In this document: positions 60,297 through 60,805 of the stretch, one piece after another
Layout: the number at the start of each line of letters is the position of its first letter
How positions within the stretch are numbered: the stretch's first letter is position 1
Assembly (NCBI GenBank): GCA_035530295.1
Contig: DATKVB010000014.1
Span: forward strand, 161,077-225,076
Source: a bacterium
Lineage (GTDB): Bacteria; Spirochaetota; Spirochaetia; Treponematales; UBA12059
Reading direction: 5' to 3'
DNA length: 64,000 bases
Made by a program: the position numbers and the translations under genes
The notes under the pieces: model-generated
Told to the model about the DNA's origin: nothing
The model's input: only the letters and a program-made list of their open reading frames with translations
The model's database searches: none

Positions 60297-60805
60297 TCAA
60301 CAAAAAGCCGCACCCTTGCAGGTGCGGCCTTTCAGGCCATATCAGCGCTTGAGCTTAGTAATCCATTCCGCCCAAGCGTCGCCCTTCGGGCGCCGCGTGC
60401 TGCAAGGAATTGTATTGACGTGCGCGCTCTCAAGCGCGCTGCGCCAGCCGCCCGCTGGAAGCGCTTCGCGCCCGCGCCGCGGTAGCGGCGCGGCCGGTCT
60501 GCCGCATGGGCGTCATAGGCGGCAGCATCAACAAAAAGACCGCGCTCCTTGCAGAGCGCGGCCGTTCAGGCTAAATCAGCGCTTGAGCTTAGTAGTCCAT
60601 GCGTCGCTTCGCTCCGCGTGCTGCAGGGAATGGTATTGACGTGCGCGCCAGAGGCGCGCGCGGCGCCAGCCGCCCGTATGGGCGCTGTGCGCCCGCGCCT
60701 CTGGCGCGGCCCGCGAGCAACATGGGCGGCAGCATCAACAAAAAGGCCGCGCCCCTGCGGGCGCGGCCACTTCAGCGATTATCAGCGCCGGATTTAGTAA
60801 TCCAT
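60297..60805 (-). repeat. Three copies of the groEL 3' end plus terminator, separated by two related hairpin-rich spacers
   Basis: TCAACAAAAA + GC hairpin + TTCAG..ATCAGCGC..TTAGTARTCCAT starting at 60297, 60528 and 60735; spacers at 60376-60527 and 60601-60734. Confidence 0.9.
60735..60768 (-). terminator. groEL Rho-independent terminator (proximal copy)
   Basis: GGCCGCGCCC-loop-GGGCGCGGCC followed by TTTTTGTT on the minus strand. Confidence 0.85.

Follow-up and report, generated by a model that had tools for sequence, protein, structure and literature searches.

Short repeats that close with a copy of the 3' end of the gene they follow have been known in Escherichia coli since 1978. As described in the available text of PMC8144298, the family of tRNA-linked repeats (TLRs) comprises 22 units at ten loci, one to five per locus, among them the 178-bp RtT/rttR units following tyrT-tyrV and the rrA, rrB and rrF units following 5S rRNA. 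The units are about 180 nt long and lie in tandem, each ending in 18-19 nt identical to the 3' end of the gene; rrA/B/F, which sit between dual terminators, are products of read-through and bind both Hfq and CsrA, and that text describes the function of the family as essentially unknown and its origin and copying of tRNA ends as unexplained. A second group of extragenic hairpins, REP and its BIME and REPIN composites, belongs with the REP-associated tyrosine transposases (RAYTs), whose genes are typically flanked by REPs of their own (PMC2817692 and bioRxiv 10.1101/2024.07.17.603846). Here we describe a tandem array between groEL and an S1-domain gene in a 64,000-nt stretch of DNA (the window) from a metagenome-derived spirochaete draft genome of 25 contigs. 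The array consists of two tandem members of a lineage-wide, mosaic family of hairpin-rich non-coding repeats at gene 3' ends, and is best filed as a target-copying variant of the TLR/REP-like repeats, located here at a protein-coding gene and TLR-like in layout. The genome under study is referred to as G000, its contig holding the array as C14, and relatives by other G numbers; coordinates lacking a contig prefix are positions in the window, and C-prefixed coordinates are positions in contigs of G000.

Architecture of the groEL array

The groEL gene (minus strand, 60794-62455, 553 aa; Cpn60_TCP1, E = 1e-81) is the sole copy in G000 by tblastn, and between its stop codon (60794-60796) and the S1-domain gene lies a spacer of 506 nt. 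Three gene-end copies are found here, each composed of the last codons and stop, a 25-nt untranslated region (UTR), a GC-rich hairpin and TTTTTGTTGA, with two structured modules, one of 134 nt and one of 161 nt, lying between them (Table 1). An earlier reading of this DNA, the original prediction, had reported the tripling of gene end, 3' UTR and terminator, and the stems and both codon strings that it quoted are indeed present at their positions. Its periods of 231 and 207 bp are approximately right, as the measured stop-to-stop distances are 234 and 205 nt (205-207 and 234 in a direct-repeat search), and the three terminator stems T1, T2 and T3 are, as claimed, unlike in sequence yet paired, differing through compensatory changes. 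The direct repeats, which fall into families of 43 nt (91% identity), 38 nt (92%) and 36 nt (92%), are far beyond chance. Tandem Repeats Finder left the array unreported because its units are too diverged, modules A and B being 77% identical.

A full unit of the family is built of four parts. It opens with an antisense arm, complementary to the final 10-30 nt of the gene upstream, continues through a scaffold of shared blocks (at groEL a locus-specific 5' half followed by a core termed alpha, in most tRNA-linked units a block termed beta), proceeds to a sense copy of the last 12-19 nt of the gene, and often closes with a copy of the trailer and intrinsic terminator. The arms change with the target and the scaffold blocks are held in common, and tRNA genes and groEL are also targets in other genomes of the order. 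Sense arms of the groEL units span 12-19 nt, from ATGGAYTACTAA to GGGCGGAATGGATTACTAA. The original prediction overlooked the segment antisense to the groEL tail with which each of them begins.

Table 1. Features of the array downstream of groEL, listed in the direction of transcription (window positions; R2, covariance model of the alpha core)
Feature	Position	Strand	Details
Gene-end copy 1	60735..60805	-	groEL ...GGCGGC ATGGATTACTAA (60794-60805), 25-nt UTR, T1, TTTTTGTTGA (60735-60744)
Terminator hairpin T1	60745-60768	-	stem GGCCGCGCCC/GGGCGCGGCC
Module A, 134 nt	60601..60734	-	antisense arm, two covarying hairpins, then alpha core
Antisense arm of module A	60722-60731	-	TGCCGCCCAT, complementary to the GGM-coding tail of groEL
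Alpha core of module A	60598..60671	-	hairpin GCGCGCC/GGCGCGC, ACGTCAATACCATTCC, 14 nt, GCGAAGCGACGCATGG; R2 76 bits (G000:C14:221674-221747)
Gene-end copy 2	60528..60600	-	ATGGACTACTAA (60589-60600, synonymous GAC), UTR, T2, TTTTTGTTGA (60528-60537)
Terminator hairpin T2	60538-60563	-	part of gene-end copy 2
Module B, 161 nt	60367..60527	-	antisense arm, hairpins, alpha core; final GGCGGA is part of the sense copy
Antisense arm of module B	~60502-60523	-	GCCGCCTATGACGCCCATGCGG
Alpha core of module B	60373..60449	-	R2 51.8 bits (G000:C14:221449-221525)
Gene-end copy 3	60297..60372	-	GGCGGAATGGATTACTAA (60355-60372), UTR, T3, TTTTTGTTGA (60297-60306)
Terminator hairpin T3	60307-60329	-	stem GGCCGCACC/GGGTGCGGC
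S1-domain gene, 406 aa	59067..60287	-	S1 RNA-binding domains; outside the repeat

The same architecture behind tRNA genes and an ABC ATPase gene

The same architecture appears behind many tRNA genes, where each tRNA has arms of its own sequence; these genes are the principal targets in G000, and groEL is one of two protein-gene targets. Behind ten of the 44 tRNA genes identified by ARAGORN lies an antisense arm that matches exactly over 13-22 nt (at +41 to +64) and then an equally exact sense arm of 16-19 nt (at +160 to +234). In control comparisons such a pair occurred in one of 44 upstream regions, and in none of 44 when arms were matched against the trailers of other tRNAs, in each of four rotations; several further tRNAs have imperfect arms. 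The sense arm starts right after the T-loop GGTTC and the antisense arm includes GAACC. Past the sense arm many units re-copy the tRNA trailer and terminator, sometimes exactly, and the units are bracketed by target duplications of 45-75 nt. Most tRNA-linked units carry the beta scaffold, and some join alpha and beta. Behind tRNA-Gly in two other genomes lie between one and four alpha units with arms that match this tRNA, the left arm being antisense to the T-arm/acceptor strand and the right end re-copying the last ~26 nt.

Protein-coding targets were sought among 9300 open reading frames (ORFs) of G000, of at least 100 aa, by requiring downstream a sense copy of at least 12 nt and an antisense copy of at least 10 nt of the gene end. 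Three passed: groEL, an ABC ATPase gene, and one unrelated simple 17-nt tandem repeat. The ABC ATPase gene (C14:346523-347611, oligopeptide-type, with ABC_tran and oligo_HPY domains) has its last 23 nt and stop re-copied and a 10-nt antisense arm, and the region behind it (C14:346200-346900) holds two ~125-nt units followed by an alpha core and a terminator.

Several other arrangements were seen in G000. After tRNA-Lys (C22:60568-60860) an inverted alpha-type core lies inside a 45-nt direct duplication of trailer and terminator, and since the inverted core is still flanked in this way, the duplication is independent of core orientation. Simpler, TLR-like arrangements occupy C8:51965-52300 and C10:78000-78261; tRNA-Val(cac) has two more copies of its last 32 nt, ~80 nt apart and lacking an antisense arm, and behind tRNA-Thr(ggt) its last 15 nt recur twice in the sense orientation. 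At C14:48540-49020 a 461-aa ORF ends inside three tandem 17-nt palindromic units (GCTTCGTTAAGCGAC...), and C3 and C17 start with an array of a ~85-nt unit (GTTTTCTCTGCGGCTCTGCGTGGGATAATTGAGGGGAAGTTCCACACAGAGACACAGAG...) at the contig ends. A tRNA-like 3' end that carries two units at C25:~280150 was called neither tRNA nor tmRNA by ARAGORN, and the Rfam tmRNA model scored 15 bits there, below threshold.

These tRNA-linked units allow a close comparison with the TLRs. In the tyrT-tyrV region of E. coli K-12 (NC_000913.3 1286400-1287700) each of the three distal 178-bp units contains a 19-nt sense arm at +159, and the same three tyrV-distal units also contain, at +59 (+59, +237, +415), a 10-nt arm GGGGAAGGAT antisense to the tRNA-Tyr 3' end, on which no statement was found in the available text of PMC8144298. 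The sense arm at +159 in E. coli compares with +160 to +176 in nine of the ten tRNA-linked units of G000, both families are rich in GCGNAGC mini-hairpin motifs, and both place a gene-end copy at the unit 3' end (16-19 nt in the tRNA-linked and 12-19 nt in the groEL units). The succession of T1, T2 and T3 also fits the TLR layout, no RNA contigs being found on the modules at very low depth. The differences lie in the upstream gene, which is groEL rather than a tRNA or rRNA gene (a stable RNA precedes the sister units at 10/44 tRNA genes); in the antisense arms, which are longer here (13-22 nt, up to ~30 nt, versus 10 nt in E. coli); and in the protein-coding targets groEL and the ABC ATPase gene, for which the available text of PMC8144298 holds no TLR counterpart. 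Nor is there a detectable sequence relation. The Rfam RtT model (RF00391), which gave four E. coli matches of >130 bits each as a positive control, had no match on 55000-64000 (E <= 1), at six loci, or at 14 G000 loci (E <= 5), and a hidden Markov model of beta recovered only a 14-nt motif in E. coli that is not significant, so that homology between beta and RtT was rejected.

The alpha core and its dispersal

The 3' part of each groEL module is the alpha core, a 73-nt element composed of a hairpin, ACNNCAAT-CCATTCC and GCGNAGCGAC. Its consensus runs from a covarying hairpin through AC-N-N-CAAT-CCATTCC and exactly 14 nt to GCG-N-AGCGAC-GCATG; alpha is a multi-copy extragenic hairpin with the conserved flank CAAT-CCATTCC. 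In keeping with the original reading of the units as inserted modules, the core is dispersed, alpha being present elsewhere in G000 and in related genomes. G000 has nine copies by nhmmer and eight by R2, the covariance model of the core, together with 18 nhmmer matches to the beta block. A BLAST search with whole units within G000, which the original prediction had proposed, found no second copy, and it is only with profile and covariance-model searches that the shared core is seen.

Among genomes of the order R2 matches 69 of 151, including 31 of 36 in the family of G000. R2 scoring reaches 32 candidates per genome, a count of 32 thus standing for at least 32, and three genomes of one genus have at least 32 matches each. 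A sample of 151 genomes across the phylum gave four with matches, all four within the order, and none among the ~139 outside it. In a scan for the exact pattern over one genome per GTDB species, 24 stretches were found. Records with the labels Spirochaetes, Spirochaetales, Spirochaetia, Treponema or Rectinemataceae account for 15; of the remaining nine, five were inspected and are hairpin-less, ordinary-looking sequence that looks like chance matches, whereas spirochaete alpha loci inspected elsewhere do keep the hairpin and flanks. Different metagenome-assembled genomes have near-identical alpha copies of 70 nt at different loci, placed directly after stop codons and between inverted arms CCACGGAG.../...CTCCGTGG.

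In these features the family resembles REP, BIME and REPIN sequences: short extragenic hairpins with conserved flanks, assembled into mosaic composites, lying behind genes and often in tandem, with a copy number that is very unequal between genomes and a RAYT gene present in G000. In contrast, REPs carry no copy of the end of the neighbouring gene, the inverted doublets of REPINs are not seen here, and copies number tens rather than hundreds. No Rfam family matched the modules or cores (window 55000-64000, six loci and 14 loci). Three other assignments were discarded: the miRNA-precursor matches in Rfam at one locus merely reflect the long hairpin between tRNA end and antisense arm; a hammerhead or other ribozyme reading of GAUGAGG...GAAAG is at odds with the motif order and with the negative Rfam result; and the 66-nt arrays in G021 are not CRISPR, as the whole 66-nt unit is repeated and there are no unique spacers. 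The 3' end of alpha has an ATG or CATG in common with the beginning of the sense arm. At C4:50400-50830 an alpha core lies at a contig end, directly upstream of an RHS/YD-repeat-like frame (...YYYHGDHLGS...YYYGARYLDP...).

Inheritance of the array at groEL

A 513-nt query spanning the array matches downstream of groEL in 23 of 41 relatives' genomes (E <= 0.01), and R1, a covariance model of the groEL module, matches 28 of 42 genomes of the family. Comparison of the groEL-to-S1 region across relatives, as originally proposed, shows the gene-end copies to vary from one to three in 16 relatives: three in G022, G051 and G043; two in G012, G011, G006, G005, G018, G013 and G054; and one in G002, G004, G014, G010, G017 and G025. 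Congener G010 provides one clean empty site, groEL-terminator-S1, where the gene end is followed directly by the upstream (promoter) region of the S1 gene, as gene-end copy 3 is in G000. G002, G004 and G014 retain just a 5' half-module, and in G012 and G013 a half-module comes after one full unit. The number of copies thus varies, and units decay through internal deletion. The antisense arm reaches ~30 nt in G054, and in G043 its longest exact run is 16 nt. Upstream of groEL in the window (62456-63406) there is no groES, and the next gene encodes a divergent pseudouridine synthase (PseudoU_synth_2).

It was correctly foreseen that the array does not stem from one recent tandem duplication: unit B is 82-83% identical to the single units of the congeners G011 and G012, above its 77% identity to unit A. 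The two units of G022 are mutually nearest (82%) and form the sole supported fork in the unit tree. The idea of a serial insertion of tiny modules fares less uniformly. Their modularity, the dispersal of the core and the empty site in G010 speak for it, but the array is family-wide by inheritance and not freshly inserted, and as a cause of copy number serial insertion is matched by unequal crossing-over between the repeated terminator segments, which explains the variation equally well. Unequal recombination between gene-end and terminator repeats would make arrays grow and shrink, giving the zero to two modules of the relatives.

Enzymes and possible drivers

Reverse transcriptase (RVT_1, PF00078) and IS110 transposase (PF01548) were each found in none of five genomes, and the ideas of a retro-element and of a bridge RNA were dropped, as regards present-day activity, on these results. 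HUH transposases (Y1_Tnp) occur in all three alpha-bearing genomes tested and in neither of two alpha-less congeners. The gene at G000:C12:66484-66894 is a RAYT by the NCBIfam cut-off (83.8 vs 80 bits), which the Y1 transposases of G021 and G047 also reach, and RAYTs are present in 64 of 151 genomes of the order. By hand count, 40 of these 151 have both alpha and RAYT, 29 alpha only, 24 RAYT only and 58 neither. Upstream of the RAYT genes of G021, G047 and G000 are clusters of two to six copies of GGGACAGAGCT/GGGACAGAGGTT (at 480-780, 1200-1560 and 380-700 of the retrieved loci, respectively), and one inverted copy of the motif lies downstream of RAYT in G000. Many G000 contigs (C2, C9-C12, C14, C16, C18, C24 and others) begin or end alike, with GCCAGCGTAGAGCTCCGG... 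or ...TGGTACGCCATGTGGCAGG..., and these common end sequences are probably multi-copy insertion sequences that break the assembly. Elements derived from IS200/IS605 (PATE) have subterminal hairpins at both ends and insert 3' of a fixed 4-5-nt target with no target duplication, differing from the units described here in their bracketing by 45-75-nt duplications.

The original analogy was with integrative elements that carry a replacement 3' end. SaPI-type islands occur at the 3' end of groEL, and the modules could be CIME-like miniature integrative elements, that is, remnants of site-specific integrations accreted in tandem, each with its own replacement end. Gene-end direct repeats do flank each module and G010 is an empty site among the relatives; the stretch of a tRNA gene from the T-loop to the 3' end is a classical att site, and the tRNA sense arms start after GGTTC; and genuine integrases adjoin two other G000 tRNA genes (C22:74991, C25:271280). 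However, these two tRNAs have no modules, and the window is integrase-free, as the original prediction stated: the tyrosine recombinase family PF00589 has six matches in G000 and none on C14 (serine recombinases were not searched), and a module is too small to encode one. Moreover, att recombination has no use for an antisense arm, the units are 200 nt long, the whole trailer and terminator are often taken into the repeats, the architecture recurs at 10 of 44 tRNA genes of one genome, and the array is kept family-wide at 60-86% identity with compensatory changes, unlike decaying scars. As nothing here shows a recombinase, the analogy with integrase-borne elements lacks support, and we regard a CIME-like origin as unlikely.

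The most plausible driver, offered with low confidence, would instead be a RAYT-driven, REP/BIME-like dispersal of the scaffold, in which a REP-associated tyrosine (HUH) transposase would act on the alpha core as single-stranded hairpin DNA; this is a weak link of the account. A look for HUH transposase genes next to homologous units had been proposed, and alpha is found within 400 nt of a RAYT gene at some loci, among them one in G021:C1, but not at that of G000 itself.

Structure and transcription

Conservation of pairing is pronounced in both the groEL units and the core. RNAalifold predicts 40 pairs for ten groEL units, 13 of them with double compensatory changes. In an alignment of 29 alpha sequences 87.4% of cells are paired in the two named helices, and double-change cells number 19, compared with 7.3 +/- 2.0 after shuffling (none of 500 shuffles reaches 19); slid controls are lower, except at +2. 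Among the RNAalifold pairs of the groEL units, G-U cells outnumber A-C cells 26 to 7 (12 of the 26 at terminator-stem bases), which makes the groEL-sense strand the better fit for the helices. For the array folded as RNA the minimum free energy is -318.8 kcal/mol (z = -5.75), and the predicted centroid structure has the tail of groEL paired to each of the two antisense arms, with the terminators enclosed. The invariant GCG-N-AGC motif has what we take to be the sequence of a very stable GNA-loop mini-hairpin known from DNA, which makes a single-stranded DNA role possible.

The units would most likely be read as RNA once transcription has run on past terminator T1, because their helices are kept by compensatory change and favour the sense strand of the gene. 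An RNA of this kind would fold back onto the tail of groEL, ending at the back-up terminators T2 and T3, whereby the S1 gene would be insulated and the groEL RNA would gain a stable 3' end. The locus thus resembles other tandem terminators in having three hairpin-plus-T-run terminators in series, and differs from them in that conserved structured modules of a dispersed family lie between these. At groEL the three serial terminators would serve to keep the S1 gene apart from a gene that is very highly expressed.

The same conserved structure, and the intrinsic terminator that ends each unit, could also be expected of independent small RNA genes, in which module and terminator are separately transcribed, the 5' arm pairs in trans with the 3' end of its target, and the 3' end mimics the target to share processing or protection factors. 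The TLRs rrA/B/F are processed small RNAs that bind Hfq and CsrA, but, according to the available text of PMC8144298, the E. coli examples arise by read-through rather than from promoters of their own. Furthermore, intramolecular pairing of the arms would compete with pairing in trans, and no RNA contig lies on the modules, at low depth. Separate genes are, in our estimate, an improbable explanation.

Weighing the favoured account

A tandem duplication confined to the 3' region of groEL, yielding a triple terminator and involving no dispersed element, would be in keeping with the frequency of tandem terminators after highly expressed genes, and unequal crossing-over would explain the copy-number changes. 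It is nevertheless very improbable, given the alpha core at other G000 loci and in 69 of 151 genomes of the order and the same architecture at tRNA genes. An assembly artefact merging strain variants of the terminator region, which had been named as a possible refutation and would suit a 25-contig metagenome draft, is scarcely conceivable, as contigs from two DNA runs, independently assembled by Logan with another pipeline, cross the whole array with zero differences (X1 record 1, 59000-61384; X2 record 9, 59685-60911) and the layout recurs in relatives that were assembled separately. As the source sample may underlie both runs, this comparison, which includes no independent sample, speaks against an assembler artefact and not against population heterogeneity.

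We therefore favour an account in which the array belongs to a repeat family that spreads at the DNA level, in a manner that would copy the end of the target in both orientations and duplicate the terminator segment with no integrase, and whose arrays would then change by unequal recombination. Taken as a whole, including the inferred spread, array dynamics, RNA role and RAYT driver, this account has in our judgement a probability of roughly 0.6.

A number of results weigh against it. On the side of the driver, the association of alpha with RAYT is positive and weak, being phylogenetically confounded, as the genomes are kin and not independent. Alpha flanks just two of the nine RAYT loci examined (within 400 nt), both in one genus, where with at least 32 alpha copies per genome the proximity could be due to chance, and no alpha lies beside the RAYT of G000 itself. 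We know of no HUH mechanism that yields a 70-nt target duplication or an antisense copy, and to our knowledge no mechanism of any kind accounts for an antisense arm together with a 45-75-nt target duplication. On the side of family history, the unit tree is unresolved apart from the G022 pair, the 5' half of the groEL modules is not detectably the beta block by nhmmer, and when the groEL arms were compared with the groEL of their own genome only two of 15 units matched their own tail longest and several differed synonymously, a tracking of each genome's groEL by its arms being dropped as support on this ground. On the side of the RNA role, the G-U excess is no proof of RNA, since G-T wobble forms in DNA too, and the RNA contigs of two metatranscriptomes (X4, X5) fall within the coding regions of groEL and S1 and none falls on 60210-60805, at a depth of 2-6 that is too low to interpret.

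Implications

The integrative elements share with the spirochaete family the direct repeats of a target 3' end on both sides, tandem accretion and empty sites in relatives; the TLRs, whose layout it shares, are its closest described relatives. A bolder proposal, tentative and on balance doubtful, is that the spirochaete units and the E. coli TLRs may be one unrecognised class of non-coding mobile element, in which the antisense arm would act as a 'guide' that pairs with, and so homes to, the 3' ends of heavily transcribed genes and re-copies the end and terminator, an integrase-free and nucleic-acid-guided process possibly using a domesticated HUH (RAYT-like) enzyme on single-stranded DNA.

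With the array at groEL and its sister units, the TLR architecture is now found in a distant phylum, with three additions: an antisense arm that is clear and long, a common scaffold traceable with covariance models, and protein-gene targets. The family is also a systematic source of unannotated structured RNA or DNA behind tRNA and chaperonin genes in metagenome-assembled genomes. Its members amount to dozens of natural replicates with different targets, which makes testable the question of what copies a gene 3' end in both directions beside its terminator.

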